Source: a virus. Taken from it: 64,000 nt of DNA. The stretch spans positions 32,001 to 96,000 of IMG/VR virus record IMGVR_UViG_3300022680_000058. One strand, given 5' to 3'. Under the pieces are notes generated by a model. It saw only the letters and a list, made by a program, of their open reading frames with translations. It did no database searches and was not told where the DNA came from. Made by a program: the position numbers and the translations under genes. Shown piece after piece: positions 8,305-55,999 of this stretch (positions are counted from its first letter, which is position 1; every line of letters begins with the position of its first letter).

Positions 8305-8322
8305 TGGGCAATCAATTGCCCA
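8305..8322. repeat. Conserved palindrome, copy 1
   Basis: TGGGCAATCAATTGCCCA, intergenic, 5 bp upstream of the RBS of the 8284 gene. Confidence 0.9.
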
Positions 8323-8332
8323 CCTCGTGTTG

Positions 8333-8737
8333 TTACCCGATCTTCCCTGCCCGCCTTCCGAGATAGGCGCAGAAGGCAGCCGGGTCCTTGACTCCAGAAC
8401 AGCACGCCTCGACGTACTTCTCACAGGTGTCAAAGGCGTCGCCTTTCCCACCCTTGAAGTCGCCCTTGGCGGTGCGATACTTCTTCCCGCACTCGCTGTC
8501 GCACTTCATGGCTTCTGTGAGCGCCATGGAGAGGATCTCCGGGTCGAGACCCATCACGCCAGCCATGTCCTCAGCAACAAACTGAGACGCCTCTTGAAGG
8601 TGCCAGCAAGGAGCCTCAGGACCATCACACCCTTCGTCGTCCTCGGTGAAGAGGTTTTCGTCATCCTCTTCATGGATCTGTTCATGGGAGTCATCTCCCT
8701 GAATGATGTTCCTGAGCTCCTCTGCCAACGACTTCAT
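8333..8737 (-). CDS. Acidic-leader, Cys-rich small protein (paralogue of 16845..17171)
   Basis: CGKKYR..AFDTCEKYVEACC..KDPAAFC; several LxE sites. Confidence 0.65.
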   Translation of the reverse strand: MKSLAEELRNIIQGDDSHEQIHEEDDENLFTEDDEGCDGPEAPCWHLQEASQFVAEDMAGVMGLDPEILSMALTEAMKCDSECGKKYRTAKGDFKGGKGDAFDTCEKYVEACCSGVKDPAAFCAYLGRRAGKIG

Positions 8738-8772
8738 TTCAACACCTCAATCCGCTACCATGACACGAATGA

Positions 8773-11403
8773 CTATTCCGAAGAGCTGAAGATCTGCTCG
8801 AACCGGAACAGGAGAAATTCTCCAGGCTTGTTCACCGCGACATACACGTCACAGATGACCAGTCCATCCTCCTCGACGTTGGGAGGATTGTTGGTCTCAT
8901 CACAGATGACGGAAAACGCCTCCTGAGGCGTGTCACCCTTGAACAGCCCCTGCCCAAAGAGCGTCAACATGAAACTCTCGACGGACAGTTGAATGGTCTT
9001 CCTGAGGGACGAACCCACGTTCTCGAAAACGAACCCATGGGTACTGTTGAAGACCGAGACCTTCAGGAAGTTGAACAGCCTTCGAGCATGAATGAACCTG
9101 AAGTCCGATGGTGGATTCTCCAGAGTCCTTGCGCCCCACACACACCGCCCTGTCTGGGCAGTGTCCATGAGAGAGTTGACCTGCTTCGGGTGGAGAATAT
9201 CGAGCTCATCGAACTCCATGGTTCGTTCGAGACCGATGCTGAAATTCAGCTTGCCCTCGGTGACGCCAGCCGGAGCTCGACCCACAGATTTCGTGTTGTC
9301 CGTCCTAGCATACACACCAGCGATGTGCCCACCAGGAGGGATATTCACAGGAAGGTCCGTCACAGGGTCAGTGATCGTGATCCAAGGGTAGTACAGCGCG
9401 CCGTAACTGCTGTTCGCCCCGAGGTCATTGATCCTGTAACTCTGAGCCTGTTGAGGCGTGAGTCCCTCCGGAGTCGCCAGGATGATGAACCATTTCTCGT
9501 TCCGCTCGGCCTCTGTGAGCTGATCGAGGGACATCGTGACGTTTCCAGCCGCGTCAGGAATCGTGACGTTCTGGAGCTCGTTCGTCGGGAGCAAAGCGTA
9601 CATCCCTTCACGATCAGTGAGAAGGGTCGGGTCGGTGAGCTCGTTCCGAGTCACAGAGCCGGGAGACGCACCATCGGTACCACCGGCGGCATCCGTCTCA
9701 ACGAGACTGAGATCTGGTTGCTTGTAAAAGCTCGCCGTCGCGATCGACCCAGGAACGAGAACGGCAGGTCCGGCGCCGTGAGACGTCTCGGGCTCCTCGA
9801 TCTCCTGACCAGCGACGAGTCTGAACGCGAAGTGTCCGGTCGTGTAGTTGATGACGTTGAGATTCGACGGGGCTGTCCCATCGACGTCACCAATCAGATT
9901 CCCGTCACCGTCATCAGTGATGGTCCTCGTATTGCCACCAACATCCGTGTAGGTGATACTGACGGACCCTTGCTGAACAGGTGCCTCCAGCGGAAGCGTC
10001 CGAACACCAACCGGAATCACAGCCGACGTCAGACCACCACCACCAGCAGTGCCGTCAGTGGAGCCGTAATCGAGAGTCGGTGTCGCAACCGGGATACCGC
10101 CGTTTCCGGCAGCACACTGGACCGACCTAGCGAAACCACTCAGACGAACGGGGGCGACATCCGCATTCGACGGCTCGGTGAGCTCGATGTAGTCCGACCC
10201 GACACCGGCATTGTTGAGCACACTTCCAACGTACCGAGCATCAGAAGTGTCAGTGAAGCTCAAATCCTCGAAAATCTCTTCGAGGCTGCCGTCAACGGTC
10301 ACCAAGACATCAAACCGAGAGTACGACGCAGTGCTCCTGGTGAAGTAGTCATCGTCCCCACGGATGTCGACGTCCACACCGTTGCCCCAGGTACCTCCAG
10401 AGATGACCGAGTAGTCCCAGATCACCTGCGAATAGCAGACTTCGATCGGGCACTTGTTGTACGGAGCAGGAGACCCAGCATTGATGATGAAACTCGCCTG
10501 CCCTGTCGTGTAGTCGATGGTGTCCGACACGCCCGTGAGGACAGTGTCAGTAGACGCCAATGTTCCGGCGCCGTCATCAAAGATGGTGACCAAGTCTCCA
10601 GCCGGGGTGAAGTCCGCCGTCACCGCAGCCGCTGCATCGGGAACACTCGCCGTCGTTGTCTCGAAAGACAAGTTGAAGACGCCTGTCGTGTAATCGATGT
10701 ACCCACGAGCGATGTTGCTCGTATCGTAGAGAATACCGATTCCCTCTTGAGCTGGAGCCGGGGCATGAACCGCGTCATCACCATAGGTCACAGCGCCAGC
10801 GCTGACCAGCGTATTGATCGTCACTGACCCAGGAACGATCTTCGCGTCGTTCGCAACGACAATCCGGCTGATCATTGCATCGTTCGACGCCGCAGAAACA
10901 CCAGCCACACCATCAGGGACGGGAACAGGAGTCAGGGCCTGAGCCACAACCGGAGTCCCTGCTTCATAGTAGGTGATAGAGACACCACCAGGAGCAGGTG
11001 TGACTTGTTGGATCGGGAGTCCAGAAATGGCTGTGAGAGGAGTACCACCCGAAGAAAAGTCCTGCGTGGTACCATCACCCACACCAATCTGCTCCTCACA
11101 GACTGGATTCGTGAGCTCTCCGACAGCAGTCGCCGCGTCGGACGGGATCACACGAACGACATACGCTCGACGACCGCCATTCGCGAAAAACGCATAGACG
11201 TGTGTTGGAACCTGGCTCAGTGCGGTGAACGTCCCGAACTCTTCCGAGAAAGAGGTGTAGTTCGTCTTGAGCGTGGCTACGTTTGTCGGACCCTTGGTCG
11301 TGAAGCCGACGATGCCCATGTTCGACGTGGAAACGCCTTGAATCGGGGTCAACCCACTCGCGCGTTCCTCGACATACACGCCGGGATGGAGGTATTCTGC
11401 CAT
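8773..11403 (-). CDS. Contractile tail sheath protein with inserted beta domains
   Basis: MAEYLHPGVYVEE..FFANGGRRAYVVRV..YGALYYPWI..PPGGHIAGVYARTD..VWGARTL..KPGEFLLFRF. Confidence 0.95.
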   Translation of the reverse strand: MAEYLHPGVYVEERASGLTPIQGVSTSNMGIVGFTTKGPTNVATLKTNYTSFSEEFGTFTALSQVPTHVYAFFANGGRRAYVVRVIPSDAATAVGELTNPVCEEQIGVGDGTTQDFSSGGTPLTAISGLPIQQVTPAPGGVSITYYEAGTPVVAQALTPVPVPDGVAGVSAASNDAMISRIVVANDAKIVPGSVTINTLVSAGAVTYGDDAVHAPAPAQEGIGILYDTSNIARGYIDYTTGVFNLSFETTTASVPDAAAAVTADFTPAGDLVTIFDDGAGTLASTDTVLTGVSDTIDYTTGQASFIINAGSPAPYNKCPIEVCYSQVIWDYSVISGGTWGNGVDVDIRGDDDYFTRSTASYSRFDVLVTVDGSLEEIFEDLSFTDTSDARYVGSVLNNAGVGSDYIELTEPSNADVAPVRLSGFARSVQCAAGNGGIPVATPTLDYGSTDGTAGGGGLTSAVIPVGVRTLPLEAPVQQGSVSITYTDVGGNTRTITDDGDGNLIGDVDGTAPSNLNVINYTTGHFAFRLVAGQEIEEPETSHGAGPAVLVPGSIATASFYKQPDLSLVETDAAGGTDGASPGSVTRNELTDPTLLTDREGMYALLPTNELQNVTIPDAAGNVTMSLDQLTEAERNEKWFIILATPEGLTPQQAQSYRINDLGANSSYGALYYPWITITDPVTDLPVNIPPGGHIAGVYARTDNTKSVGRAPAGVTEGKLNFSIGLERTMEFDELDILHPKQVNSLMDTAQTGRCVWGARTLENPPSDFRFIHARRLFNFLKVSVFNSTHGFVFENVGSSLRKTIQLSVESFMLTLFGQGLFKGDTPQEAFSVICDETNNPPNVEEDGLVICDVYVAVNKPGEFLLFRFEQIFSSSE

Positions 11404-11434
11404 GGTATCTTATCCCCTTCCGTCGTCGTGGGCT

Positions 11435-11833: not shown

Positions 11834-11850
11834 CCTACACCTCTCTCAGG

Positions 11851-13337: not shown

Positions 13338-13419
13338 TGTTTCAACCCGTCATGACCCATGCGCGACAACCTGGACTCGTAGAGGCATCTCATCGACACC
13401 GCGAGAGCTGGCTGAGAGC

Positions 13420-13770
13420 CTACACTTCTGTTGGCTCCTGGATTGGTTTCTTTTCCTCACCAGGCCACCGCCAATACAAACCATGAGCTGGTTGCACTGA
13501 AACATGAACGATGCTGGTATGCCCCTTCTCGGTCTGACGACCATAGGGGTCCTGCTTCGACTTATCTCGTGCTACACGAACAGCATTGATGCACGGCATA
13601 CATCCGTTGAGCTTGACGTCTCCGTGCACGGCTAGCACCAAAGCATTTTGGTCTACGCCTTCAGGGTCCGTAAAGATGACGACATCTCCAACGTGAGGTT
13701 GTCTCCGATCCATTATCTCTTGCTCCTTCTGCGACCTTGTTGCCGCGCAGGAGTCATGACGATCACTCAT
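13420..13770 (-). CDS. Hypothetical protein
   Basis: PHVGDVVIF..ALVLAVHG..CIN..YWRWP; start may be MDRRQP. Confidence 0.6.
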   Translation of the reverse strand: MSDRHDSCAATRSQKEQEIMDRRQPHVGDVVIFTDPEGVDQNALVLAVHGDVKLNGCMPCINAVRVARDKSKQDPYGRQTEKGHTSIVHVSVQPAHGLYWRWPGEEKKPIQEPTEV

Positions 13771-14135
13771 TTCTGGCCAACCGGAACCATGGCGTGCGGA
13801 GACTTCGGGCGAAGCATCTCCACATGCTCATCGCACGCCCCGACCATCCCCCCATCCTTCGCTTCGACGAGGTTGGTCGAATCCTTCCCACACCTGAAAC
13901 ACAAAGAGGCAATTGATTGCCTGCTCAATGGACCTCTATATGATGGGAACGACATACCACTGAGAGGACCACCACACTCCCCGTCGCCCAGTGCATCCCT
14001 ACACGAAGCCGAGTTCTCGCCTGTTGGCGCCATCCTCTCACAGCACGAGCACACGAATGAGTAACCCTGCTTCATGAACCTTTCCGTCTGGATCATACTC
14101 CTACTCCCTCCTCTACAACATACTCCGACCACCAC
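13767..14135 (-). CDS. Cys-rich zinc-binding protein
   Basis: CSCC, C..CGGP, CFRC, C..H; start probably MIQTER. Confidence 0.6.
   Translation of the reverse strand: MVVGVCCRGGSRSMIQTERFMKQGYSFVCSCCERMAPTGENSASCRDALGDGECGGPLSGMSFPSYRGPLSRQSIASLCFRCGKDSTNLVEAKDGGMVGACDEHVEMLRPKSPHAMVPVGQK
13906..13923. repeat. Conserved palindrome, copy 2
   Basis: GAGGCAATTGATTGCCTG inside CDS 13767..14135. Confidence 0.85.
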
Positions 14136-20231: not shown

Positions 20232-21011
20232 TCACCCCACGATGAAAGGAACAGGATCGCTGAGACTGATCAGCTCCTGATCAAGTGAGAGTTTCTCGTC
20301 CTGAGCTTCGGCGAGTAGTGTCTCACCGTCCATAGATTTCGCACCACCTGCCGACGGGAATTCAGTGTACTTCCCACGGACTCGACCGAGGCGTTCTTTG
20401 AGACACGCCCTGGCGTACCTGAGGATCATGTCCCTGTCACGGAACCGAAGCTTCCTGAAATCATTCACAGGGGTCGTATCAGGCGCCACAGGGTCCTCGG
20501 TAACCAAGGTGGTGCTGGCGTATCTGGCGACCACTGTTCCAGTCGAATGGTTGACCGGATAGATGGACAGCAAGTTGTCGACTCGGCTGTACTCCCACGA
20601 TGGCTCGGAGCCGACAACCCGCTTCGCTGTCTCGGAGTGGGCGATCATCTGGTTGAGGGTGCCGTAAAACGAGCCCCCAGGGATTCCTGTGAGGCTCGCA
20701 TAGGCCACGGGGAGCATGTCCACGTCAATGAACGCGAAGGGGTTGATCGAGGCAATGACATCGAGCTGGACACCAGGGAACCAAACGGACAAAACCTCGT
20801 CACAGTCATCAGGCATCGAATAAGTGCTGATTCCAGACGAGACATTCTGAACGGCATGTCGTTTGATCCCCTTTTTCCCGATCCACCACCTCAAGGCATC
20901 ATCGAAGGAATCACTGCAATGCTCGTCAGTGACTTCGAGGACCACAACGCCACAGCCCAGCGAGCGCTTGACCCAGCCCTCAGCCTCTTCCCTGTTCATT
21001 GGGTCCGTCAT
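20232..21011 (-). CDS. Neck protein, T4 gp13-like
   Basis: WVKRSLG..VLEVTDE..DDAL..RYARACLKERLGRVRGKY..GG..MDGETLLAEAQDE..FIVG. Confidence 0.85.
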   Translation of the reverse strand: MTDPMNREEAEGWVKRSLGCGVVVLEVTDEHCSDSFDDALRWWIGKKGIKRHAVQNVSSGISTYSMPDDCDEVLSVWFPGVQLDVIASINPFAFIDVDMLPVAYASLTGIPGGSFYGTLNQMIAHSETAKRVVGSEPSWEYSRVDNLLSIYPVNHSTGTVVARYASTTLVTEDPVAPDTTPVNDFRKLRFRDRDMILRYARACLKERLGRVRGKYTEFPSAGGAKSMDGETLLAEAQDEKLSLDQELISLSDPVPFIVG

Positions 21012-21039: not shown

Positions 21040-21057
21040 TGGGCAATTGATTGCCTA
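21040..21057. repeat. Conserved palindrome, copy 3
   Basis: TGGGCAATTGATTGCCTA, intergenic upstream of the gp13-like gene. Confidence 0.9.
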
Positions 21058-28994: not shown

Positions 28995-31900
28995 CTAACT
29001 TCTGAGAAACGGCAACGATCCGCCTGGGGCCTTCTTCTGGGGTCCGCTCTTCTTGCGGTCTCCATGGTCATCCTTCTTCACGAGAATCATACCGCCAGTC
29101 ACCCAGGAATCATCCTCTTTGTTCATATCGGGCGACTCTCTGGAACTCGACACCATGTCCACAGGGCGCCCAGGAGCCTTCTTACTCAGAGAATACACGA
29201 CACCAGCGATCGAGTCAGCCACGTCCTTTGACCCTGGTGTCCCATCCGGGTTTCGCTTTGGGTGGTCAATCTTGACCTTCCCGCCCCGCTTCGGAACTCG
29301 CTGTAGATATCTGAACTCTTGCAAGGCGATAGGGTTCGGCGCCATCCGGAAACGACCTTCATAGATGGCTGCCTTCAATGTGTCGTATGGCTCGGTTGTC
29401 CTGTCAATCGAAACGACTTCAGCCTCGATCCCATGCTTGTTGAATTGCTGGATCGTATCAGCACTCTGGAACTGGTCGAGAGAGCTGTAGGAAACCATGA
29501 ATCCATGACCCATAAATTGATAAACGATCCCACGCAGATCAGCCAACATGATCTCGTCACCTGGCGGTGGGATAACACGAAGGACAAGATCTGCTTCCAT
29601 GCGAGGGGCCAGCTCGTTGTACTCCTCGCCGTAAGCATCCTTCCGAACAACCTCTGTCCATCCAGCAATATGACCTATCGTGAGTCCCGCAGAGTCCCCC
29701 GTAAGCGCCGGGTCGATGTGGACGTATCGAACCTCCCCAGGATGCCTCTTCGGGCGCCACGCTTCCTCGTGGACCCCACCAGGGAGCCGTCGCACGAACG
29801 GGTTACAAATCCGGTTCCATTCAATCTTCAACGGAGACCCAGCGACCCACTCAACCACAGGCCCATCACCCTCAAGACCGGCCACTGGGTTCTGTAGTGT
29901 CTCATCCTGACAGTTGTAGACCATCTCAGTTCGGCTCATGTACTGAGATATGACGTCAGTAGCCACACCAGCAACGTCTCTCAAGGCACTATCGATATCC
30001 GCCTCAAATTCACCTCGATAATCCTCTGGAACATCGACGATTTGAAGCCCGAGCTCTCGATACCGTGCCTCATCTTCCTCGTCTCCAGGGCCAAGGATTC
30101 GAGAAGAAATCCGCTCATTACCAACAACAACCTTGAAAAACTTCCCGCTGAATCGCTCCTTGGGGTGGACCTCCCAGGTTGCATACTCCCGGATAAACGT
30201 CATGGGGTCTTCAGATTCTTTAGCCTGGTCAATCCTCTTCTCGATGAACGCGTTGGGGCGCTCCTTCGATGACGCCACAATCAGCACACCTGGGAGCCGA
30301 CCAACCCTCTGGAACCTGGACTTCATTCGCCGAATGATCGACTTGTAGATTTTCTCTCCGACATCGATGAGCACCTCTCGCCCAAGGCGATCAACCTCCT
30401 TGGCCTCACCCATAAAGCTCGACTCATCGATAAACCCAGAGAACACATTGAGGCCGATGATTGCAGACGAACCAGTCGAGCCAGCCACGACCTGAATATT
30501 GTTCGGGAACCTGATTTCGAGCTGCGACGGCGCCTCTTTGGATGGAAAGTGCTCCTGAAAGTATCTTGAGTGACGAATCTTTCCGATCAACTCGTTGATA
30601 ACGACACGCTTGGCCACCTTCTCCGTGACACTCAACATCGCCACGTAGATATTAGACCCAAGGTCAATCCCATACGCCCGTTGAGGATTCCTGAGGCATG
30701 ACATCTGATAAATGGCGTAAGCCATCGCAGTTGTTGAGAAAAAGCTATTGTGAACCACGACGCCATTGACAACAGCGTTACCTGTCGCCGGAACACTCAA
30801 GTCGTAAACATCACGAACACCCCTTGGCTCAACCGACTCAACCCGCTCCCACACGATGTCATCGCTCATGTCAGCGAATCTCCGGAACCTCCCGTGATAC
30901 CCGACCGAATCACACAACCGAACAAACTTTTGACGCCCCATATAGGAGCCCTTACACAACCCAGCAAGCTTGGCCCACTTCTTCTTGTTGTGCAGTCCAG
31001 TCTCTCTTCGGATCTCTTTCAGCTCTTTTGTCGTAATCGGGACAACATCCCAATTCGAGTTCGGCTTCACACTCCTCGCCTGCTTCAGGAGCCGATCACA
31101 CGCCGCCTCTTTCCCCGGTATCTGTCCAACCCTCTCCATGAACAAAATCTGGTTCGGCGCGTCAGCTATCTGAAGCCTCCAGGCATCGAGGTCACCATCC
31201 TGGTTCTTTTTGCGCTTGTAGCTCTTCCGAGCCACCACACCAAAGCGACGGAGGAGATACTGGATGTCATCGATCAACCCCTCAGACGCAAGGCAGATCT
31301 CAATCTTTCGAGGACTCCCCGTGTAGACGTCCCCATCGGTGAACAGCCAACGAAGAAAGAGAGAGAGCTGCTCATCCGACAAACCAAAATACGTATCCGG
31401 TACCCTTTTTACTTTCGACAGGCATCTGATACCAAGAGTGTCAGTCCACTCTGTCAATCCCCTAAGGCTGATCGTAGGCTTCCCATCTGTGGTCGGGCTC
31501 GCCCCATCAAACCCAGGAATCGATCCAGCATGCTTGACGACTTCTGCTCTAAGATTCGGGTCACCTTTGGTGTACGTCGTCCGCGCCCCTGTCATGCTTC
31601 CGTCAGCGATGAGAGCCGCCGAGACGACCACTTCATCGTCTGAGATTTCGAGCTCTCTCTGAGGGGCTGGGACGCGACGAGCTACAGCTACCAAATCACC
31701 CTCTTCAAGAGCAGAGACATGACGATACCCATCCGGGCACAACACCGGGTGATCAAGGCTCGCATCGAGGTGCTGACCTGAGACCAGCTTCATCCTGGCA
31801 CATTCTTTTCGACCAGACTTCCATACCCGATTCGACCTCTCATGGGCAATTGATTGCCCACCAAATGACGGAACTGATGGTGTCTTCCCAACAGCTTGAC

Positions 31901-32300
31901 CAATCGTCATCCTTGTGCCAGAATCTGAATCTACGAAAAAACTCAATGATTCTAGGCACTTCCCCCACCCAATGCTGCCTCCGAGCAATGCCTCTTGGTA
32001 CTGTCCCTCAAAGAGTTCCACCATATCGTCTTTGAGCTGTGGCCAGAGGGACGCACCAGTCTCACCGAGGAAATATGGATCTGTCAGGAACTCTCTGATA
32101 CTGACCGGAGCTACACGATACTCGATGTCGGCGATGGACCTGTAACCCTTCGTCTCGCCAACAGCCAGCTTGTTGTAGATTTCAAGGACAGCTTCTCGCT
32201 CCTCTGGTGGGAGCCTTTCAATATCAGCAAGGAGGAGATCTTCCTCTTCTTCGTCAGTCCTGGTGGATCTGACCCTGCCATTCACATCAAGGATAGGCAC
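28995..32300 (-). CDS. terL: Terminase large subunit (intein-containing)
   Basis: Walker A GSIGWGK|S split by the intein; Walker B FIDE; nuclease motifs YVHIDPA and SKDVADS; adjacent to the portal gene. Confidence 0.92.
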   Translation of the reverse strand: MPILDVNGRVRSTRTDEEEEDLLLADIERLPPEEREAVLEIYNKLAVGETKGYRSIADIEYRVAPVSIREFLTDPYFLGETGASLWPQLKDDMVELFEGQYQEALLGGSIGWGKCLESLSFFVDSDSGTRMTIGQAVGKTPSVPSFGGQSIAHERSNRVWKSGRKECARMKLVSGQHLDASLDHPVLCPDGYRHVSALEEGDLVAVARRVPAPQRELEISDDEVVVSAALIADGSMTGARTTYTKGDPNLRAEVVKHAGSIPGFDGASPTTDGKPTISLRGLTEWTDTLGIRCLSKVKRVPDTYFGLSDEQLSLFLRWLFTDGDVYTGSPRKIEICLASEGLIDDIQYLLRRFGVVARKSYKRKKNQDGDLDAWRLQIADAPNQILFMERVGQIPGKEAACDRLLKQARSVKPNSNWDVVPITTKELKEIRRETGLHNKKKWAKLAGLCKGSYMGRQKFVRLCDSVGYHGRFRRFADMSDDIVWERVESVEPRGVRDVYDLSVPATGNAVVNGVVVHNSFFSTTAMAYAIYQMSCLRNPQRAYGIDLGSNIYVAMLSVTEKVAKRVVINELIGKIRHSRYFQEHFPSKEAPSQLEIRFPNNIQVVAGSTGSSAIIGLNVFSGFIDESSFMGEAKEVDRLGREVLIDVGEKIYKSIIRRMKSRFQRVGRLPGVLIVASSKERPNAFIEKRIDQAKESEDPMTFIREYATWEVHPKERFSGKFFKVVVGNERISSRILGPGDEEDEARYRELGLQIVDVPEDYRGEFEADIDSALRDVAGVATDVISQYMSRTEMVYNCQDETLQNPVAGLEGDGPVVEWVAGSPLKIEWNRICNPFVRRLPGGVHEEAWRPKRHPGEVRYVHIDPALTGDSAGLTIGHIAGWTEVVRKDAYGEEYNELAPRMEADLVLRVIPPPGDEIMLADLRGIVYQFMGHGFMVSYSSLDQFQSADTIQQFNKHGIEAEVVSIDRTTEPYDTLKAAIYEGRFRMAPNPIALQEFRYLQRVPKRGGKVKIDHPKRNPDGTPGSKDVADSIAGVVYSLSKKAPGRPVDMVSSSRESPDMNKEDDSWVTGGMILVKKDDHGDRKKSGPQKKAPGGSLPFLRS
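30747..31958 (-). mobile_element. Intein with LAGLIDADG endonuclease in TerL (404 aa)
   Basis: N-terminus CLESLS, block B ASLDHP, ALIADG and WLFTDG, block F VYDLSV, C-terminus VVHN|S. Confidence 0.93.
31843..31860. repeat. Conserved palindrome, copy 4
   Basis: TGGGCAATTGATTGCCCA inside the TerL intein coding sequence. Confidence 0.9.
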
Positions 32301-41038: not shown

Positions 41039-43252
41039 CTACTCCTCCTTCGCAGCCAACTCGTCGATGAGCTCCTGTCCATACTCGATCTTGTCGGTCC
41101 TCTTGTCGATCGCCACAACACTCAGCCCTGTCAACCTCTCAAACTGGGCCAACCACTCACCGACCACCACCGACTTCATCCGGTCATGGAACGAACAGTA
41201 ATGGAGACAGATCAGACTCAGAGCATGCCCCTGACTGTGAGTCTCGCCGTCAAACTGAGCGAACTCCAAGGCCTCATCAACGGTCTTCGCCGAGTCCTTG
41301 TGAACCTGGAAGATATATCGACGCCAGTCCGCCTTTTCGGCCTTTTTCTTCTCGACCTCCTTCACAATGTCATCCGTGGGATCGGCACCGATCGTCTCCT
41401 CGTCATCAGGGTCAACCATCGCCTCTTCGAGGGGCTCCCCCTCTTTCAGCGGCTTGACCTTCGCAGGCTTCCCTGTCTTCAAGTGGCTCGTGTCACCCTT
41501 CCCTGGCTGGTCATCATCGTCCTTGTCATCCTTGGACGGCTTGGTGTCCCCAGCCCCATCCTTCTCGAAGGGCGGACCCTCGTTGTTGAACGCCTGATCC
41601 TTCTCCTTCTGCCGCTTCTCGCGAGCCTTCTTTGCCCTGGCTTCTTCGGCCTTTTTCTTGGCCACTCTGGCGGCGGTAGCGAGGTCTTGGGTGTTCATGT
41701 CCTTGGCAAGTTTGAACCACTTGTCCATGTTCCGCTTGTCGATCACCTCGACCAGCTCTTTGCTCTTGGTGTTGTACGAAATCACAGGACAGCAGAACCG
41801 TCCTGTCTCCGTTTCGAGGTGAACCAGAGGACCGTTGACATTAGCGAGCTCAATGGACCTCACAGGCACTGCGAAACCTTCTGAAATCACGGCGTAATGA
41901 TTGCTTGAGCGAATCATCTCTCGACCCCACGAGCCAAGAATCTCTTCCGCATCAAACTTACTGACGGTCACTATCCAAACGTCGTGATGAGGCTCATCTC
42001 TCTTTTGATGGTGGACACCGGCAAGCACCCCAAGACGAGTCAACAATGTCCGAATCTGGTACGCCAACCCTTGCGAGGTCGTGAGAACGATGTGTGTCCC
42101 CTTTTCAGACCTACTCCCGTCACCACCACAAAGACCACGAACAAAGGCCCTGACCTTTTCCTTGGGGAGACTATAGAACTCAGTCGGAATCCTCTTATGG
42201 TAAGCACCCTTGCCGAACCAATCATCAAACTGGACATCAACCCCATCGCCAGAAACCGTCACGCGGAAGCTCCCGGTGTGTTTTCCACCATTCTTCCTGA
42301 TCGAGTATTCATGGCCATGGAAAACGACCTCTGCCAACTCGGCAATGTGGTCCCTCTCCTCCTCAGCATCCTTTCCAAGACTGATCCTGAGCTGCCCACC
42401 ATAGGTGAACCCCTCTGTCACATACCAACCAGCAAACTCGAAGAACTCGTCATCCATACTCTCGAATTCACCAACGTCTGTTGGCTTCACAGCAGGGACC
42501 ACAAGCATGTCCCCCACGCACAGGTCCTCCGCGTTCACCCTCTCGATCTCATACTCAAAAGGCGCCTTATCCAAATGGGCTTCTCTCCTCTTCACCACCC
42601 CTTTTCTGATAACGTCAAATCCATGGCCTTCACTCGCCACCAAAGTCCCACACTTCACCACTTTGATTCTGTACCCCTCATCAAAGTTGAAGACCATGTT
42701 CTCGACGACCTTGGTCCAACCACCATTCTCGTCCATAATCACGTCACCAGGACCAACACTAAAGATCGGTTTCGATCCATTGATGGTCGTGATCGGGGTG
42801 TGCGGATCGAGGCACCAGCCGATTTCTTGAGCTCCCTGAAGGAGCTTCGGGTCTGCCCCCTGCTCAATACCGAACCACCACCAGACTCGCACAAGATACT
42901 TTGCCTTGCGGTAGTCGACCCCGAGAGCATCTTCCACATAGGTCTGGAACGAATCGTACTGTCCATCGAGATGTCGATAGAGGTTGTCCAGCTTCACCTC
43001 GTAAAGATGCCTCGCCAGCTCGAAGTAGGTCTCCTCGTACTGACGCATGAGATCAAGAATTCTCTCGTGAACTTTCATAGCTCTCGTCTGGTCAGACGAA
43101 AGCACCTCGGTTTTGAGAGCTCCCCCCTTGAGGGGTACCAGTGCCGAAGAATCGACGCTCGGGACATCGGGCTCATCCTTGGACTTCGAGCCCCTTTTCT
43201 TTGCCACTGGTGATCCGGTAGGTGGTGTTTGCCTCGCAGGTGTATCGGTCAT
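41039..43252 (-). CDS. Intein-containing protein of unknown function (DUF3102-like helical extein)
   Basis: Spliced extein reads YFELARHLYEVK..YDSFQTYVE..YRKAKYL..EIGW|TKSKEL. Confidence 0.75.
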   Translation of the reverse strand: MTDTPARQTPPTGSPVAKKRGSKSKDEPDVPSVDSSALVPLKGGALKTEVLSSDQTRAMKVHERILDLMRQYEETYFELARHLYEVKLDNLYRHLDGQYDSFQTYVEDALGVDYRKAKYLVRVWWWFGIEQGADPKLLQGAQEIGWCLDPHTPITTINGSKPIFSVGPGDVIMDENGGWTKVVENMVFNFDEGYRIKVVKCGTLVASEGHGFDVIRKGVVKRREAHLDKAPFEYEIERVNAEDLCVGDMLVVPAVKPTDVGEFESMDDEFFEFAGWYVTEGFTYGGQLRISLGKDAEEERDHIAELAEVVFHGHEYSIRKNGGKHTGSFRVTVSGDGVDVQFDDWFGKGAYHKRIPTEFYSLPKEKVRAFVRGLCGGDGSRSEKGTHIVLTTSQGLAYQIRTLLTRLGVLAGVHHQKRDEPHHDVWIVTVSKFDAEEILGSWGREMIRSSNHYAVISEGFAVPVRSIELANVNGPLVHLETETGRFCCPVISYNTKSKELVEVIDKRNMDKWFKLAKDMNTQDLATAARVAKKKAEEARAKKAREKRQKEKDQAFNNEGPPFEKDGAGDTKPSKDDKDDDDQPGKGDTSHLKTGKPAKVKPLKEGEPLEEAMVDPDDEETIGADPTDDIVKEVEKKKAEKADWRRYIFQVHKDSAKTVDEALEFAQFDGETHSQGHALSLICLHYCSFHDRMKSVVVGEWLAQFERLTGLSVVAIDKRTDKIEYGQELIDELAAKEE
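41771..42814 (-). mobile_element. Intein with LAGLIDADG endonuclease (348 aa)
   Basis: CLDPHTPI, block B ASEGHGF, FAGWYVTEG, FVRGLCGGDG, C-terminus VISYN|T. Confidence 0.88.
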
Positions 43253-43872: not shown

Positions 43873-44653
43873 TCCGCACCTCTTCTTTCTGCTTTCTGAC
43901 CCGATCACGATCGATCGTGAATGGATGCTCGATGATAGCCTTTTCGAGCTTCTTCTCCGTCAAGTCGACGTAGACGATCCTGGCTTTCTTCACGCCAGCC
44001 ATATCGCCGTACCAGGTCACCTGACTGACGTGGTCGTCATTCGGAGCATTCCGAATCCATCTCGCACTTCTGGTCGTCTTGATGTCCCAGATCTCCATGG
44101 TGTTTCCAGGGATGATGATCAAGCCATCAGTCAGCCCAGAGATTCTGAGGTCCAAGTTGTAAAGGAGCGGCTCTTCATAAATGAACCCACGGCGCCAGCT
44201 TGGAGTCATCCCGCAGAGCTCACACACGTCAGGCCTTACGATAGAAGATCTGACAGTGACCTTGTCCACAACGACCTCGCCGTGAGACGGAATCGGGACC
44301 TTGTCATCCTCATCAATCCCGTGGACGTGTCCGCACTCGGAGCACTTCCAGCCTCCGAGAATCCACTTCCCGTCGCCTCCCCACATGCTTTGGAGAAGAG
44401 TGTGGGCCGACGTTCCAGAGTCCATCGCCCACCGGCTATCCGGCATGAACTCATCGACGAGAGGAAGATCCATCTTCCACGCCATGGCATAGGCTCTCGG
44501 ACACATCTTCGACAGTTGGCTCGGAGAAAACCACATGTCCTGAGAAAGTCGCTTCTCTCTCCGTGTATAGAGCTGCTTCACGATGTACGGGGTCAAGAAG
44601 GCACCCTTCTCTCTGATACTCTTGACCTCCTTCAGAAGAGACCCGAGGGACAT
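43703..44653 (-). CDS. Cas4-like PD-(D/E)XK exonuclease
   Basis: SPSQL..CPRA..GTSAH..GLTDG..DIKT..QVTWY; C-terminal C..CEC. Confidence 0.8.
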   Translation of the reverse strand: MSLGSLLKEVKSIREKGAFLTPYIVKQLYTRREKRLSQDMWFSPSQLSKMCPRAYAMAWKMDLPLVDEFMPDSRWAMDSGTSAHTLLQSMWGGDGKWILGGWKCSECGHVHGIDEDDKVPIPSHGEVVVDKVTVRSSIVRPDVCELCGMTPSWRRGFIYEEPLLYNLDLRISGLTDGLIIIPGNTMEIWDIKTTRSARWIRNAPNDDHVSQVTWYGDMAGVKKARIVYVDLTEKKLEKAIIEHPFTIDRDRVRKQKEEVRNVREVFQAPKEELEIPACPDDGRGTFGPCECAGLEDAWKSYGDRLVSPAYGNCHPQ

Positions 44654-45051
44654 CAGACAAGCCTCCTAATCGCATCAGAGATACTCACCTTGGCATCCTC
44701 GACCAATCCATCGATGAACTCATCAACAGCCTCCCTACCGTGATACGCCTTGAGGTCTTCCAGTGCCTCAATCGAGAAGTTCTGAACGATGGTCAGCACC
44801 CCAGTTCCGTTCTCATCGACAGAGAGTGTCGCTCCCTTGGGAACCTTCCCGAATTCATCCCCCGCCATCAACTCCAAAACGGAGACATCTCCTCCCGTCG
44901 CCTTGCTGAGCGCCACCGCTGTCCTGAACGACGACTTCTCACCGTTCGAGATCCGGTAAACGGTTCCCTGACTCACATCGGCGTCCCTGGAAAGCTTCCC
45001 GAGACTGACATTGGTCCTCTCAGACCACCTCTTCAATGGGTTATCACTCAT
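44653..45051 (-). CDS. Cro / XRE-like HTH regulator
   Basis: SLGKLSRDADVSQGTVYRISNG..TAVALSKATGGDVSVLELM. Confidence 0.75.
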   Translation of the reverse strand: MSDNPLKRWSERTNVSLGKLSRDADVSQGTVYRISNGEKSSFRTAVALSKATGGDVSVLELMAGDEFGKVPKGATLSVDENGTGVLTIVQNFSIEALEDLKAYHGREAVDEFIDGLVEDAKVSISDAIRRLV

Positions 45052-45057
45052 CTGTCT

Positions 45058-45087
45058 TTTATAACCATTCAATTGCCACACATGCAA
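45058..45087 (-). promoter_or_regulatory. Putative promoter for the Cro-like gene (leaderless)
   Basis: TTGCAT-18bp-TATAAA, 6 nt before the ATG; the spacer holds a degenerate palindrome site (GGCAATTGAATGG). Confidence 0.45.
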
Positions 45088-45122: not shown

Positions 45123-45140
45123 TGGGCAATTGATTGCCCA
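45123..45140. repeat. Conserved palindrome, copy 5
   Basis: TGGGCAATTGATTGCCCA between the two HTH genes. Confidence 0.9.
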
Positions 45141-45142: not shown

Positions 45143-45673
45143 TCAGTTGTAGTGGACGAACAGAGAGACAACGTCTCCAGCCATGAGCGGCCCATCATCA
45201 CAACCAAGCCGAACCCTGTCAGTCTTGTCTCCCTTGAGCTCACAAGACATGAAAACGTCCCACGGACCGGAGTAGTTGAGAACAACCTCAACCCAGTCTG
45301 CCCGATGAGCAATCGTCAAAGCATACCGAATGATGCCATCCTTCTCCGGAACAACCATCACATCAGAAAACCAATCTGACGTGGTAGGGTTTTCCGACCT
45401 CCTACTGTCCAAAACCACAAATGGAAGCACCTTGATGTTCCATCCCTCTCTTTGATTCCAAATTGTGAAGAGCTTTTCGATAACACGCCTATCATCAGGT
45501 TTCGTGTATCCACGAGACCAACGAGAAACTGTTGCCAGGCTGACACAGAGTGCCTGAGCCAAAACCCTTTGAGAGACAACACCTCGGCGACCCTTCGAGC
45601 CAGTAATGCTTTTGACCATCTCACCGAGCCCCTCATTCTTCAGAATCATCATCTCCCCTCGGGTAGTCTTCAT
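45143..45673 (-). CDS. XRE-family HTH protein
   Basis: SQRVLAQALCVSLATVSRWSRGYTKP. Confidence 0.75.
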   Translation of the reverse strand: MKTTRGEMMILKNEGLGEMVKSITGSKGRRGVVSQRVLAQALCVSLATVSRWSRGYTKPDDRRVIEKLFTIWNQREGWNIKVLPFVVLDSRRSENPTTSDWFSDVMVVPEKDGIIRYALTIAHRADWVEVVLNYSGPWDVFMSCELKGDKTDRVRLGCDDGPLMAGDVVSLFVHYN

Positions 45674-49646: not shown

Positions 49647-49658
49647 CTTTCACCAATC

Positions 49659-49686: not shown

Positions 49687-49725
49687 GCGGTACGCTCAGA
49701 TTTCGTCAAAGTTTCTTTGGTGGGA

Positions 49726-51577: not shown

Positions 51578-51580
51578 GAC

Positions 51581-52278: not shown

Positions 52279-52281
52279 AGC

Positions 52282-52620
52282 TCACTCCTTCTCGTCGTCT
52301 CCAATTGGACGCCAGTTCGACATCCGAGGCCTGTTGCATGTTCGACAGTATCCGGAATAGCCCTGCTCGACCCGCTCACCCCGATCTGTCTTTATGGAAT
52401 TCCCACACTCGGAACACACCCCCTTCGGAACGATGATATCGGGCTCGATGCCAGCGAACTCGAAAAGCTTGTTGAGCTCCTCCGGGGACACCTGTGGAAG
52501 TCCCATCGAGACGAAATCCCATCTCCCATCGCCTCGATAGCATGGGTATCCATCCTGACTGTCCCAACGCATCCTCTTGAGGATCGTTCCGACGAGTTCT
52601 TTCGCCTCATCCGTTTTCAT
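52282..52620 (-). CDS. Hypothetical zinc-binding protein
   Basis: CSEC..CRTC; start MKTDEAK. Confidence 0.55.
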   Translation of the reverse strand: MKTDEAKELVGTILKRMRWDSQDGYPCYRGDGRWDFVSMGLPQVSPEELNKLFEFAGIEPDIIVPKGVCSECGNSIKTDRGERVEQGYSGYCRTCNRPRMSNWRPIGDDEKE

Positions 52621-53083
52621 CGAAATCTTCCTCCTGCCCAAGCTCATAAAGCATCTGAACAAAAACCTTCCGAGGAACCGCGATCCAGTCCTGTTCAGCA
52701 GTCTCCACCGGGCGCCCGAGCTTTCGCCACATCTTCGAGGCTAAATCATCGAGCACACTCTTTCTGAATCTGATCGCAAGAAATGGATGCTTGACGAGAT
52801 CGGCAGCCTCACTCGTGATCTTGTTGAGCCACTCAGCTTTGATGCTGAGACTCTTCCCCTCAGTGGTCTTGCACTCGCCGTGGAACGAAAACGTAGCAGC
52901 ATCAACATTTGCCACATCTCCCTTGGCGTCGTATCGGCTCCCTGAACCCTTCTGTCGCCGACCACCCAGAGTCTTGGCTGTGGACTCCTCGTGGCGTCTG
53001 GGAGCCTCGTGGTTGGTCCTACGCCTATCAGCGTCGGGTCTCGTGAACCTCGACCCGATCGAAGGCCTCTTCTCGTCCCTCAC
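52607..53083 (-). CDS. Hjc-like PD-(D/E)XK nuclease / resolvase
   Basis: HE..LGGRRQKGSG..KGDV..GECKTT. Confidence 0.75.
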   Translation of the reverse strand: MRDEKRPSIGSRFTRPDADRRRTNHEAPRRHEESTAKTLGGRRQKGSGSRYDAKGDVANVDAATFSFHGECKTTEGKSLSIKAEWLNKITSEAADLVKHPFLAIRFRKSVLDDLASKMWRKLGRPVETAEQDWIAVPRKVFVQMLYELGQEEDFDENG

Positions 53084-53421
53084 TAGATCCCACCCTTGAT
53101 GAGCTCGATCAGTGCCCCCATCTCTCTCTGCCTGTCGATGAGGTCTCCGACTCTTCTGTTGGCAACGATCAGAACCTCACGAAGCCTCAACACCTCATCC
53201 ATCAAGGCGTATTCGATCAACTCCTGGCTGTCGTATTCAACACCGAGGTAGTTTCCGATCTCCACAGCCCAAAACGGAGCTGTCCCATTGGGCCATGTTC
53301 CTTTTGCTCGCAGATGGATGACGTCGTTCACATCAATTGTGTGACGAAACTTCATCACGGGGTATCCTTTTCGATACAAGTCTCGAAGGATCTCTGTCCT
53401 GCTGGTTACCGTTTCAGTCAT
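53083..53421 (-). CDS. Hypothetical protein (leaderless)
   Basis: ATG 7 nt downstream of the -10 box, no RBS. Confidence 0.6.
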   Translation of the reverse strand: MTETVTSRTEILRDLYRKGYPVMKFRHTIDVNDVIHLRAKGTWPNGTAPFWAVEIGNYLGVEYDSQELIEYALMDEVLRLREVLIVANRRVGDLIDRQREMGALIELIKGGI

Positions 53422-53427
53422 GATGTC

Positions 53428-53455
53428 ATAATATAACCTGAATAGGCTCTGTCAA
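53428..53455 (-). promoter_or_regulatory. Sigma70-type promoter
   Basis: TTGACA-16bp-TATTAT. Confidence 0.65.
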
Positions 53456-53496
53456 TCAATCAACACACACTTTCGTCCAGGTTGTATAATCGAATC

Positions 53497-53814
53497 ATGA
53501 GAGACGTCATAGAGAAGGCCGTCAGACTATTGAGGCAGGGTCACAACAGGGAGGCGCTCAGGGCTCTTGAGAGAGCTCTGGACATCACAGAGACGGCGAC
53601 ACCCATCCCAGCCCCCATCGAGAAGGCATGCCGCCCAAGTTTCTTTGTCGAGAAAGATGGGAATGGAGGACACCTGTGTATTGACGACACAGGATGGCAC
53701 ATCGAGCCGTCAGCGCTTAAGGGTCTTCCGAGCCCTCACGATGAACGGTTTGATGAACAGGTAAAGGAGGTTCTTGACCGAGGAATCGCTACCGGTCTCA
53801 TTCGCCGCCTCTAA
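53497..53814 (+). CDS. Hypothetical protein (plus strand, leaderless)
   Basis: TATAAT at 53485-53490 and ATG at 53497. Confidence 0.6.
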   Translation: MRDVIEKAVRLLRQGHNREALRALERALDITETATPIPAPIEKACRPSFFVEKDGNGGHLCIDDTGWHIEPSALKGLPSPHDERFDEQVKEVLDRGIATGLIRRL

Positions 53815-54018
53815 CCTCCAAAGACGAGCTCTCGTCAGTATCTCAAACGAAGAGACACTGAAAGCGACGAACAAGACAAAAGTAAAGCCCGCATTGACCC
53901 ACGATGGCTCGTACAACTGATTCTGAGGGACAAGCAAAAGTGCCTGCATACACACATTAAACGCAGCCAGAAACACAAGCACCTGTAGACCAATAAACTT
54001 CAGAAATAACCACCTCAT
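53710..54018 (-). CDS. Small membrane protein (2 TM)
   Basis: Two hydrophobic segments; its 3' end overlaps the convergent plus-strand gene. Confidence 0.5.
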   Translation of the reverse strand: MRWLFLKFIGLQVLVFLAAFNVCMQALLLVPQNQLYEPSWVNAGFTFVLFVAFSVSSFEILTRARLWRLEAANETGSDSSVKNLLYLFIKPFIVRARKTLKR

Positions 54019-54266
54019 GATTCGTCCTCCCCTCTATTGTTTTGGCGCCATTGACTGCATGTCTTCCAAAAAGGGAGTGGCTCCCACCCCGTCCCTCCGT
54101 AAACACAGTCAATGTACTCCCTGTATCGGCAAGTGAAACATGTCTCGTTTCGACGCCTCCGGACGATTGCTGTGATCACGACGTACAGTATTGCCGAAAT
54201 GGACACGATAATCACCGGAGCGAACATGCACCAGATCACAATGTCTTTCATCTCCATGGCCATCAC
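54015..54266 (-). CDS. Small membrane protein with a Cys cluster
   Basis: TM helix followed by RRRR, CFTC..C..C. Confidence 0.55.
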   Translation of the reverse strand: MMAMEMKDIVIWCMFAPVIIVSISAILYVVITAIVRRRRNETCFTCRYREYIDCVYGGTGWEPLPFWKTCSQWRQNNRGEDES

Positions 54267-55555
54267 CTCGCTTGTGCGAGCTCCTTTAGAATAGCTGTTC
54301 TAACGAGTGGGGCCAGGTCAGGATCATTCGTCACAGCCATCTTGAGAGCTGCCTGACTTGCGAACCTCTCACCGGCGATCTCGTACTTCCCGCCGTCCTT
54401 CGGCTTCGCATCCTTGTGTTCTTTGACAAGATATTTCATCGCGTTTTTGAAGATGAAATCGTCCTCCATAACAGTACCGGCTGGAACGTTGTCCGTTGAT
54501 CTCATCGTTTGAGCGAATATCCCCTCAAACCCTCTTGTCGGGGCTGTCCTGTTTTTCGTGATCTTGAAATGGATCGTCTCCTTCACCGGGAAGATATTCT
54601 TCTCTTCCTTCGACCCATACGCCTCCGTGACAGCCTCGACCTTCGACGACAGGAATTTGACCTCTGCATGAATAGCAAAATCCTGCCCCTTCCCTCCAGG
54701 TTTCGTGCTCGGATCACCGAACATGACACCGATCTTCAATCTTGCTTGGTTCACCCAAATCATCGATGTCATGATGCCCTTATTCTTGTTCCGGGCACCC
54801 ATGGAGACCCATCCGCGAATCCCCTTGTTGACCAGTCTCGCCTGAAGACCTTGCTGCCACTTCTCGGCACCTTCTTCGATCTCTGTCCTTGGCGTGAAGT
54901 GAGCCAACGAATCCACGATGACGATGTCGAACATACCCGACTCCATGATGAGCTGGATGATGTCCGACGCCTCTTCACCGTTCTCTGGTCGAACATAATA
55001 GAGACGCCGATCATCAACACCAACTTCACCAGCCCAGACAGGATCATAGGCATCCTCAGGGTCGATCCACGCCGCAATGAACTCCTCGTATGAGTTTTCG
55101 TTGAGCTCATCTTTCCACTTCTCGACTCGTATTTTGTAGTCCTTGGCACTCTCCGAGAACTTCCCCTTGCTGTCCTTCTTTCGTTCCGGAAGAATGACAG
55201 GAAGAACGGTCTTCCCCTCTTTCACACAATCACAGAACGCCTCAGCATGCCACCTGGCGTCCGAATCTTCTTCGAGCTGCTCAGGTGTCGGAGGAATCAC
55301 CTCAAGGTTCTGTGCGGGTCTCAGGCACCTCCGACACAGGTTCTGATTCTTGGCAACGATTCGAGCCGCAGTCGTGGACTTACCGCCGGACTTTTCGCCC
55401 CACAGCATGATGTTCCGACCATGAGGGAACCCACCACCAAGGCCAGCATCCAGAACAATCGATCCTGTCGTGAGCCTCAGGTCTCGTGTTCTGTTCGTTC
55501 CAGCGTTGAAATTCTTTTTGATGAGCTTGCTTGCCCCGATAGCCCGATCACCCAT
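54263..55555 (-). CDS. recA: RecA recombinase with an insertion
   Basis: TGSIVLDAGLGGGFPHGR, GEKSGGKST, IDPE, VDSLA, GLQARL, NQ.RLKIGVMFGDP..PGG. Confidence 0.93.
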   Translation of the reverse strand: MGDRAIGASKLIKKNFNAGTNRTRDLRLTTGSIVLDAGLGGGFPHGRNIMLWGEKSGGKSTTAARIVAKNQNLCRRCLRPAQNLEVIPPTPEQLEEDSDARWHAEAFCDCVKEGKTVLPVILPERKKDSKGKFSESAKDYKIRVEKWKDELNENSYEEFIAAWIDPEDAYDPVWAGEVGVDDRRLYYVRPENGEEASDIIQLIMESGMFDIVIVDSLAHFTPRTEIEEGAEKWQQGLQARLVNKGIRGWVSMGARNKNKGIMTSMIWVNQARLKIGVMFGDPSTKPGGKGQDFAIHAEVKFLSSKVEAVTEAYGSKEEKNIFPVKETIHFKITKNRTAPTRGFEGIFAQTMRSTDNVPAGTVMEDDFIFKNAMKYLVKEHKDAKPKDGGKYEIAGERFASQAALKMAVTNDPDLAPLVRTAILKELAQAR

Positions 55556-55619
55556 GAACGCACCTCACCTCTCTGGCATCGTCACAGATGCCCCTCAGTG
55601 ACATTGATTGACATCAAAA

Positions 55620-55964
55620 TCAGTAGCTGGGATCTTTCTTCTTGTTCGAGGCGTACTCTCGAACTCCAGCGACCTCGTCCTCGATGCGTTTCTCGACGAA
55701 ATTCGACGCCCAATCGTCAGCCGCTTCGACATCTTCTGGGTAACACGGGACCTCGATCGAAACATCGACACGAGCGCTCTCGTAGTCACCGATGTTCAGA
55801 GTCAGACCGTATCCACGCCTAACCCTGGCAACGGGACCATCGAACACAGCGACAGCAACAACCTCATCACTGTGGACTTCTCGGCCCGTCCCCTTTCTGT
55901 ACACGTACCTATTGTCGATTCGTGCTACCGTTGCTTCTTCGTGAGGTCCATTCTCCTTCGACAT
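55620..55964 (-). CDS. Hypothetical phage protein
   Basis: GLTLNIGDYESARVDVSI; GGAGGAG RBS before MSKEN. Confidence 0.65.
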   Translation of the reverse strand: MSKENGPHEEATVARIDNRYVYRKGTGREVHSDEVVAVAVFDGPVARVRRGYGLTLNIGDYESARVDVSIEVPCYPEDVEAADDWASNFVEKRIEDEVAGVREYASNKKKDPSY

Positions 55965-55981
55965 AATCTTCTCCTCCTGAA

Positions 55982-55999
55982 CAGGCAATCAATTGCCCA
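55982..55999. repeat. Conserved palindrome, copy 6
   Basis: CAGGCAATCAATTGCCCA just upstream of the RBS of the 55964 gene. Confidence 0.9.

Follow-up and report, generated by a model that had tools for sequence, protein, structure and literature searches.

Occurrence of the word in the phage genome

The DNA analysed here, in the following called the window, is a 64,000-nucleotide stretch (bases 32001-96000) of the viral record IMGVR_UViG_3300022680_000058 (147,979 bp), and the element in question is a short palindrome, hereafter the word, of which exact copies are dispersed over the phage genome. Among the proteins of the phage, referred to as G000, are a capsid protein of the gp23 type, a portal of the T4 type, a prohead protease and a sheath-like protein, and the P-loop of its large terminase (28995-32300, minus strand) is split after GWGK by an intein with a LAGLIDADG domain. 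The GC skew of the genome is negative throughout, and 182 of the 199 called open reading frames (ORFs) lie on the minus strand. Within the window, the 14-mer GGCAATCAATTGCC was found in six exact copies, starting at 8307, 13908, 21042, 31845, 45125 and 55984. The initial annotation of the window had listed the same six sites, with coordinates starting 2 nt earlier as the TG flank was counted in. A scan with up to two mismatches to GGCAATCAATTGCC returned only these sites again, on the opposite strand. As the annotation had supposed, six copies are beyond chance, since the 14-mer did not occur once across 100 dinucleotide-preserving shuffles of the window.

In the whole 148-kb record, 11 exact copies and not a single one-mismatch copy were detected, which amounts to about one copy per 13 kb. 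The majority of them lengthen to the 18-bp palindrome TGGGCAAT-CA-ATTGCCCA; the flanks are mostly TG..CA, and the asymmetric CA/TG centre, already described as invariant for the window, is invariant across the copies of the genome. The word is a selected genome-wide recognition word, and a chance repeat is excluded. The individual sites in the window, including one half-site-like sequence, are as follows (RBS, ribosome-binding site; HTH, helix-turn-helix; aa, amino acids).

8305 to 8322: copy 1, TGGGCAATCAATTGCCCA; intergenic, upstream stop codon 15 nt before the core, AGGAG and ATG downstream on the minus (coding) strand
13908 to 13921: copy 2; 14-mer core only, within a 122-aa Cys-rich ORF (13767-14135, minus strand)
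21040 to 21057: copy 3; intergenic, a TGA TAG stop ends directly before the core, RBS and ATG of a head-tail adaptor-like gene (20232-21011) 30 nt downstream
31843 to 31860: copy 4; within the large terminase gene (28995-32300, minus strand), some 30 codons from the start of its LAGLIDADG intein
45123 to 45140: copy 5; intergenic between two Cro/CI-type HTH genes, 4 nt past the stop codon of 45143-45673; a sigma-70-like promoter (TTGCAT..TTATAA) of 44653-45087 follows about 45 nt downstream
55982 to 55999: copy 6; intergenic, 6 nt past the stop of a MerR-like gene, then AGGAGG and ATG of a 122-aa gene (55620-55988)
45064 to 45077: half-site-like GGCAATTGAATGG in the spacer of the TTGCAT..TTATAA promoter; 3 mismatches to the word, status uncertain

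Thus, four of the window copies (8307, 21042, 45125 and 55984) are intergenic and two (13908 and 31845) lie in coding sequence, exactly as annotated. Their description as lying upstream of gene starts is less apt and is better worded as a position just after the previous stop codon.

Related versions of the word in other phages

The word belongs to a family of the form GCA-R-T-YR-A-Y-TGC, of which each genome carries one version. The genomes in which iterated copies were found, the versions and the copy numbers are given below.

G000 (this phage), T4-like, 148 kb: TGGGCAAT-CA-ATTGCCCA, 11 copies
G003 (IMGVR_UViG_3300002052_000001), complete 191.6-kb genome, syntenic, T4-like, portal 59% identical: GGCAGTCGACTGCC, 20 exact and 4 one-mismatch copies
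G008, 27.8-kb fragment of another relative: cGCAATCGATTGCg, 6 copies
G001, complete 102.7-kb phage: TGGCAATCAATTGCCA, 41 copies, plus variants
DLP_5 (MG189906.1), cultured Stenotrophomonas phage: cTGCAAT-CA-ATTGCA, 28 copies
Summit, cultured Stenotrophomonas phage: the DLP_5 version in syntenic places, about 27 copies
RcZahn, cultured Rhodobacter phage: GCARTYRAYTGC, 18 copies
SIO-2, cultured Vibrio phage: GCAAT-YR-AKTGC, 12 copies

The initial annotation had considered that the copies might not be conserved in related genomes; we looked at this and found the family kept in related as well as in cultured phages. The layout in G003 matches that in G000 (stop, word, RBS, start), and one orthologous gene of the two genomes contains the word at an identical position and in an identical reading frame, each genome using its own version (encoding GQSIA and RQSTA, respectively). 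A search with the G000 capsid protein against G001 gave no match. Copy positions turn over between relatives, and copies within one genome are identical. No iterated word set was found in Rhizobium phage RHph_TM16, in Pseudomonas phage BHU-17 or in the partial contigs G004, G005, G009 and G010, which are 42-78% complete; a closer metagenomic relative, L347, has no copy in its 20.8-kb stretch, and the G003 version is multi-copy in no other IMG/VR record. Three CG-centred copies in G001 (38957, 39802 and 41862) come from a repeated tail-protein motif (F/Y-G-N-R-L-P..F-E-V) and were not counted as sites. The HNH/NUMOD4-like homing endonuclease gene of G001 (95420-95953) carries the word near its start and near its end, and together with the copy in the G000 intein this shows that mobile genes also carry the word. 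Among the cultured phages, DLP_5 and DLP3 have a temperate life style, and a phagemid state is known for DLP_5 (PMC5834331, PMC7326821).

The turnover of positions together with the identity of copies within a genome could also be accounted for by relics of recombination cassettes that have no reader, are homogenised by gene conversion and are kept as promoters of modular exchange. Composite cassettes of word and early promoter in G001 and RcZahn, and copies in or beside mobile genes such as the G000 intein and the G001 HNH gene, would fit such relics. However, an identity of 12-18 bp is very short for homologous exchange, the even spacing described below and the presence of copies in conserved genes speak for selection on the word itself, and both the same-frame copy in two divergent genomes and the retention of the core across very distant phages are at odds with this explanation, which we regard as quite unlikely.

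Placement, spacing and orientation of the copies

Seven of the 11 G000 copies are located at gene junctions, as seen on the coding strand, and most of these have a stop codon within the core or 2-15 nt ahead of it, the RBS of the next gene lying 5-10 nt behind the word. A Shine-Dalgarno sequence and a start codon follow within 14-30 nt in five cases, namely four junction copies and the intragenic copy at 29316. In both G000 and G003, many copies stand 2-15 nt past a stop codon and 2-10 nt ahead of the next Shine-Dalgarno sequence. The four intragenic copies of G000 are found in poorly conserved stretches, namely a linker, the Cys-rich small protein, the terminase intein and a Rep-like protein. 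When positions that are intergenic or at most 30 nt from a gene end were taken as boundary, the seven copies fell into 18% of the G000 positions (P=0.001), and the enrichment recurs in G003 (P=0.001), G001 (P=8e-7) and DLP_5 (P=0.009).

The gaps between neighbouring copies are more even than random in all four of these genomes, with coefficients of variation of 0.43 (P=0.004-0.006) for G000, 0.52 (P=0.001) for G003, 0.66 (P=0.003) for G001 and 0.49 (P<5e-5) for DLP_5; the scan for count and spacing that the annotation had proposed thus gave, over the whole record, 11 evenly set copies. With regard to orientation, the centre reads CA rather than TG on the sense strand in ratios of 8:3 in G000, 19:8 in DLP_5, 22:19 in G001 and 12:0 in RcZahn, or 61:30 when pooled (P=0.0015), both orientations being present. 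The words of G003 and G008 are perfect palindromes.

This pattern bears on the possibility that the word is a 'self' tag for DNA transactions, i.e. a Chi private to the phage, a site for the primosome or for replication restart, or an entry point for packaging, with the SF2 helicase, the Cas4-like nuclease, RecA/UvsX, the resolvase or TerL as readers. Since each stretch of phage DNA would then need a copy within a few kb, even spacing in four genomes speaks for such a role, as does the fact that 18 of the 28 DLP_5 copies lie within annotated genes that are unrelated to each other. The orientation bias along one-directional genomes is Chi-like, and a palindrome works from either side. On the other hand, known Chi sites are single-strand words of 5-8 nt and not palindromes of 12-18 bp, and neither the strong preference for gene ends nor a fixed position upstream of some promoters (see below) is expected of a self tag. 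In view of this, and of the distribution of the candidate readers given below, we consider such a tag doubtful.

Scarcity in bacterial genomes and distinction from parS

A scan of species genomes with KGGCAATCAATTGCCM gave at least 120 single scattered matches; among the matches listed, there was no second copy in 870 kb of flanks and no enriched genome. The 12-mer core was counted 0-7 times in each of 301 genomes from a single gammaproteobacterial order (Lysobacterales/Xanthomonadales-type), whereas the phages have one copy per 2.5-13 kb. The density of the word in DLP_5 is about 150-fold that in this order, which was sampled to represent the host of DLP_5, and the difference is in line with a self-marking role. 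A host-wide iterated palindrome of the HIP1, uptake sequence or REP type was rejected, as the word is not abundant in the bacterial genomes scanned.

The same data bear on a conserved host factor hijacked by the phages, e.g. a LacI/PurR-type regulator. The core GCAAT-CG-ATTGC resembles the PurR box, GCAAA-CG-TTTGC. The palindrome has the size of an operator, some phages have the CG centre, and the hosts of G000 and G001 are seemingly similar; no LacI-type HTH was found in the phages, which is compatible with a host regulator and led us to reject a phage-encoded reader of the LacI type. Binding by a host factor is nevertheless very unlikely, because phages of Rhodobacter, Stenotrophomonas and Vibrio have the same core, the 12-mer is present only 0-7 times in each of the 301 genomes, the matches listed by the species scan are single and scattered, and the versions differ between the close relatives G000 and G003. 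The occurrence of the same core in phages of alpha- and gammaproteobacteria makes a phage protein the likelier reader.

An analogy to parS, which the initial annotation had offered besides an operator, did not hold. The word is unrelated in sequence to the 16-bp parS consensus TGTTNCACGTGAAACA, and it was not possible to identify it as parS on other grounds either: G003 has five canonical or near-canonical parS sites (TGTTTCACGTGAAACA) at 50277, 83875, 126798, 140581 and 165445, separate from its 20 word copies, and a ParB_N domain search of the complete G001 record, which has 41 copies, found none. G000 carries a ParB protein beside a transfer-messenger RNA (tmRNA) gene. It contains no CACGTG and no parS-like site within 3 mismatches, and its ParB must therefore read another site.

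Probable recognition as DNA and relation to promoters and terminators

In G001, the copy at 54050 is situated between two divergent, well-formed sigma-70 promoters, upstream of both, and in RcZahn, one arm is GCAAT and the other GCAGT in 9 of the 18 copies, so that the stem contains either an A-C mismatch or a G-U wobble pair. These unequal arms spoil a hairpin, yet they fit the half-site GCA(A/G)T. Based on the divergent-promoter copy, the unequal RcZahn arms and the centre that is invariant in both orientations, recognition of duplex DNA is favoured over recognition of RNA. Given the bias towards CA on the sense strand, a role in RNA is kept as the less probable reading. In this case, a hairpin of 5-7 bp with a UCAA, UUGA or UCGA loop between cistrons would be read by a phage RNA-binding protein or nuclease and would set mRNA ends or tune the translation of the next gene. 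Many of the G000 and G003 copies indeed lie between a stop codon and the next Shine-Dalgarno sequence, and flank changes keep the pairing, with G:C in G000 and T:A in G001; moreover, T4 is known for conserved intercistronic hairpins, and PeSL stem-loops of T4-type phages attenuate transcription (PMC2839356). However, the hairpin energies are only -3.3 to -9.1 kcal/mol, the two orientations give different loops while the centre remains invariant, half of the RcZahn stems are imperfect, one G001 copy stands upstream of both divergent promoters, and many copies lie deep inside genes. An RNA element is thus unlikely.

An intrinsic terminator was rejected, since no T-run abuts the stem, the hairpin is weak and ordinary canonical terminators are found separately beside several G001 copies. 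A sigma-54 promoter (TGGCAC-N5-TTGC, GG-N10-GC) was rejected as well: by direct reading the core has GG-N9-GC, the N10 spacing is restored only by the extra G of G000, and DLP_5 and RcZahn lack the GG. A sigma-70 promoter was ruled out, too, as none of the TTGACAG-type promoters of G000 is linked to the word. The T4 late-promoter box TATAAATA is not present in G000. At 3 of the 18 early promoters of G001 and at 3 early-region sites of RcZahn, the word stands at a fixed distance upstream of the -35 box, and this position is operator-like.

Shared replication-recombination module and candidate readers

At least four of the word-bearing phages (G000, G003, G001 and DLP_5) have a replication-recombination module and TerL in common. 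The part of the module that lies in the window, and the DNA-binding-type protein it encodes, are the following.

52607 to 62002, minus strand: replication-recombination module, window part, common to other word-bearing phages; genes for primase, phrog_17226 protein, SF2 helicase, winged-HTH protein, phrog_25619 protein, RecA/UvsX and resolvase
56002 to 56904, minus strand: MerR-like winged-HTH protein, tandem-duplicated; weak candidate reader

According to a profile search for further shared proteins, G001 has only the syntenic module and TerL in common with G000 and G003. In these three genomes, the module comprises DnaB, primase, the phrog_17226 protein, SF2 helicase, the MerR-like winged-HTH protein, RecA/UvsX and a Cas4-like nuclease; the phrog_25619 protein and the resolvase are common to G000 and G001, and neither was detected in G003. 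The nearest cultured relatives of the module are those of Stenotrophomonas phages, and the gene order in DLP_5 is the same. That word-bearing phages share just this module and TerL would suit a self tag read by one of its enzymes; against this, the module is present without the word in G004, G005, G009, G010 and BHU-17.

The MerR-like winged-HTH protein is the only protein of DNA-binding type present in all compared genomes (G000, G003, G001 and DLP_5), with two tandem DNA-binding domains in G000 and one in each of the others. It is no more than a weak candidate, because its recognition helix does not follow the word and homologues occur in word-less contigs, and a reader is therefore not assigned. 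The Rep_1-like HUH protein was rejected: there is a copy inside its gene in G000, G003 and G005, but the gene is absent from G001. None of the binders named by the initial annotation could be linked to the word, as both HTH_3 proteins (44653 and 45143) are specific to this phage and, in the protein at 56002-56904, the recognition helix does not co-vary with it.

A dispersed operator or roadblock as the most probable function

Taken together, we favour dispersed stoperator-like operators or roadblocks for a conserved phage-encoded DNA-binding protein, to which we assign a rough probability of 40%; that a protein binds the word, that the phage encodes it and what its binding brings about we infer. 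The genome-wide operator or stoperator proposed by the annotation is likewise the best fit, the copies being boundary-enriched, evenly spaced and conserved as a family, and its parS part is lost. Under such a model, the palindrome would be a cis-acting DNA word, read as a duplex by a conserved, sequence-specific phage protein, probably a dimer with the half-site GCA(A/G)T. Selection would keep one exact version per genome and would set the copies at regular intervals, preferentially in the small gaps that directly follow stop codons, and would fall back on weakly conserved gene segments if such a gap is lacking. The most likely task of the word would be transcription control over the whole of an almost wholly one-directional genome, the bound protein acting as a roadblock or insulator at gene ends and, in the siphovirus relatives, also at operators that precede the -35 box of some early promoters by 8-20 nt.

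Several observations weigh against a dispersed operator or roadblock. Roadblocks have no obvious need for even spacing, and an asymmetric CA centre is odd for a symmetric dimer. G000 and G003 look like T4-like lytic phages, in which an immunity-type silencer is unexpected, although both do carry ParB and a Rep_1-like gene, and G003 also parS. No TTGACAG-type sigma-70 promoter of G000 adjoins a copy, copy 5 being near the weaker TTGCAT..TTATAA. Furthermore, no repressor common to all word-bearing phages was found, just the MerR-like winged-HTH protein being shared, and its recognition helix is nearly identical in G000 and G003, though their words differ, and different between G000 on the one side and G001 and DLP_5 on the other, though the core is the same; homologues are also encoded by contigs without the iterated word (G004, G005, G009 and G010).

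A wider proposal, which we put forward only tentatively, is that of an ancient system of cis-element and reader extending across a large supergroup of tailed phages, in which GCAAT-YR-ATTGC would be a regular, phage-private 'self' mark read by a protein of the module. The system would span T4-like myoviruses as well as siphoviruses infecting Vibrio, Stenotrophomonas and Rhodobacter, several of these phages having the same module, and the module protein might tell phage from host DNA or silence the whole genome.

Further features of the genome

Megablast against cultured phages returned no close relative of G000, and its capsid protein is at most 33% identical to that of any cultured phage, i.e. 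the kinship is only distant. A second LAGLIDADG domain is contained in a 737-aa protein (41039-43252, minus strand), the homologues of which have just 322 aa (G003) and 275 aa (G001). The tmRNA gene mentioned above (genome 110479-110844, L133:14479-14844, minus strand; tag ANTDSYPEMSLAA) is directly downstream of parB, and a word copy is found 64 nt past its 3' end. Genome positions 102626-103840 (L133:6626-7840, minus strand) encode a protein in which a ParB N-terminal domain and an adenine methyltransferase of the MT-A70 type are fused, and this fusion is kept in G003. The Rep_1-like protein (HUH rolling-circle type; genome 130828-132135, L134:14828-16135, minus strand) scores just below the Pfam cut-off and is kept in G003 and G005; the genes of all three hold a GGCA..TGCC palindrome, and that of G003 also a canonical parS. 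A second recurrent word, CAAAGAAACTTTG, is present in 8-9 exact copies, nearly all in sense orientation, e.g. at 13227, 39294 and 49719 of the window and at 122430 and 132640 of the genome, and several of these encode K-E-T-L. The termini of the record (1-99 and 147881-147979) form a perfect 99-bp inverted repeat, which may be an assembly artefact or a real end structure; the CheckV completeness is 77%.

Many palindromes of 6 bp are purged outright from G000 as well as from G001, G003, G004, G005 and DLP_5. In G000, CTCGAG is observed 0 times compared to 118 expected, and GGATCC, CTGCAG, CAGCTG, CACGTG, CCCGGG, CCGCGG, GCCGGC and GGGCCC are also missing. The avoided sites are mostly common to G000 and G001, which suggests similar hosts, and the set of G003 is different. 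CAATTG is neither avoided nor otherwise unusual in G000, so that an explanation of the word as a restriction site was rejected. For 11 of the 15 enzymes applied in the restriction fragment length polymorphism (RFLP) test of DLP3 (PMC7326821), DLP_5 (MG189906.1) lacks a recognition site. The reported resistance to digestion may thus be due to a lack of sites more than to modification of the DNA; SmaI (57 sites) and ClaI (21 sites) are not explained in this way.

Comparison with known systems

Full-text literature searches for the sequence gave nothing relevant, only unrelated primer matches. In the DLP3 paper, palindromes and repeated DNA motifs go unmentioned, and neither this paper nor that on DLP5 came up in the sequence search. 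No paper describing the word was found among those searchable. From its similar spread through distant phages, the word appears to be a so far undescribed site recognised by a conserved phage protein. If there is such a reader, the word would represent a new layer of genome-wide control or self-marking in a large group of phages, and it would also serve as a simple sequence marker for members of the group in metagenomes. It is directly testable in the cultured phages DLP_5, Summit, RcZahn and SIO-2.

In the T4 literature, the nearest thing is the PeSL cassettes of T4-type phages, which are conserved intergenic stem-loops between a stop codon and the next gene (PMC2839356, PMC4122927). The word can likewise form a stem-loop at this position, and some copies in G001 and RcZahn are joined to early sigma-70 promoters. 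The stems of PeSLs, however, show loose conservation (GGGG..CCCC and the like), invariably go with a promoter and cluster in hyperplastic regions, whereas the word is exact, mostly promoter-free in G000, evenly distributed over core and late genes and also present inside genes. Membership in the PeSL class was rejected, since no TTGACAG promoter of G000 adjoins a copy and composites account for only 3 of the 18 promoters of G001, with another 3 sites in RcZahn.

The stoperators of cluster A mycobacteriophages, bound by the L5 repressor gp71, are tens of near-identical sites of 13-14 bp over the whole genome, mostly in short intergenic spaces and with an orientation bias relative to transcription; some are at promoters and most are far away from them. 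The word resembles them in its many near-identical, dispersed and mostly short-intergenic sites (11, 20, 41 and 28 copies in G000, G003, G001 and DLP_5, respectively). Stoperators differ in being asymmetric, the word being a palindrome or pseudopalindrome; no gp71-like repressor was identified here, this phage looks T4-like, and the word is evenly spaced and conserved across very distant phages and hosts. In P1, one repressor, C1, acts on many operators over a plasmid-prophage genome of about 94 kb, and these are asymmetric 17-mers at promoters. DLP_5 is a plasmid prophage like P1, but, unlike the P1 operators, most copies of the word are not at promoters.

The O_B sites of KorB (RK2), the Noc-binding sites and parS are dispersed palindromes of 13-16 bp, each recognised by one dimeric protein that can act at a distance. 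A dozen or more dispersed palindrome copies are a trait shared with the word, the differences being that its sequence is unrelated to parS, that the parS sites of G003 are separate and that no ParB_N was found in G001. The HIP1 element of cyanobacteria, uptake sequences and Chi are, like the word, exact, over-represented and evenly distributed inside and between genes; they are properties of bacterial genomes, whereas the word is confined to phages. Dispersed exact binding sites have been known for a few model phages and plasmids, namely the L5 stoperators, the P1 C1 operators and the KorB sites; here, nearly the same word is present, evenly spaced, in phages of different capsids and hosts, cultured ones included.

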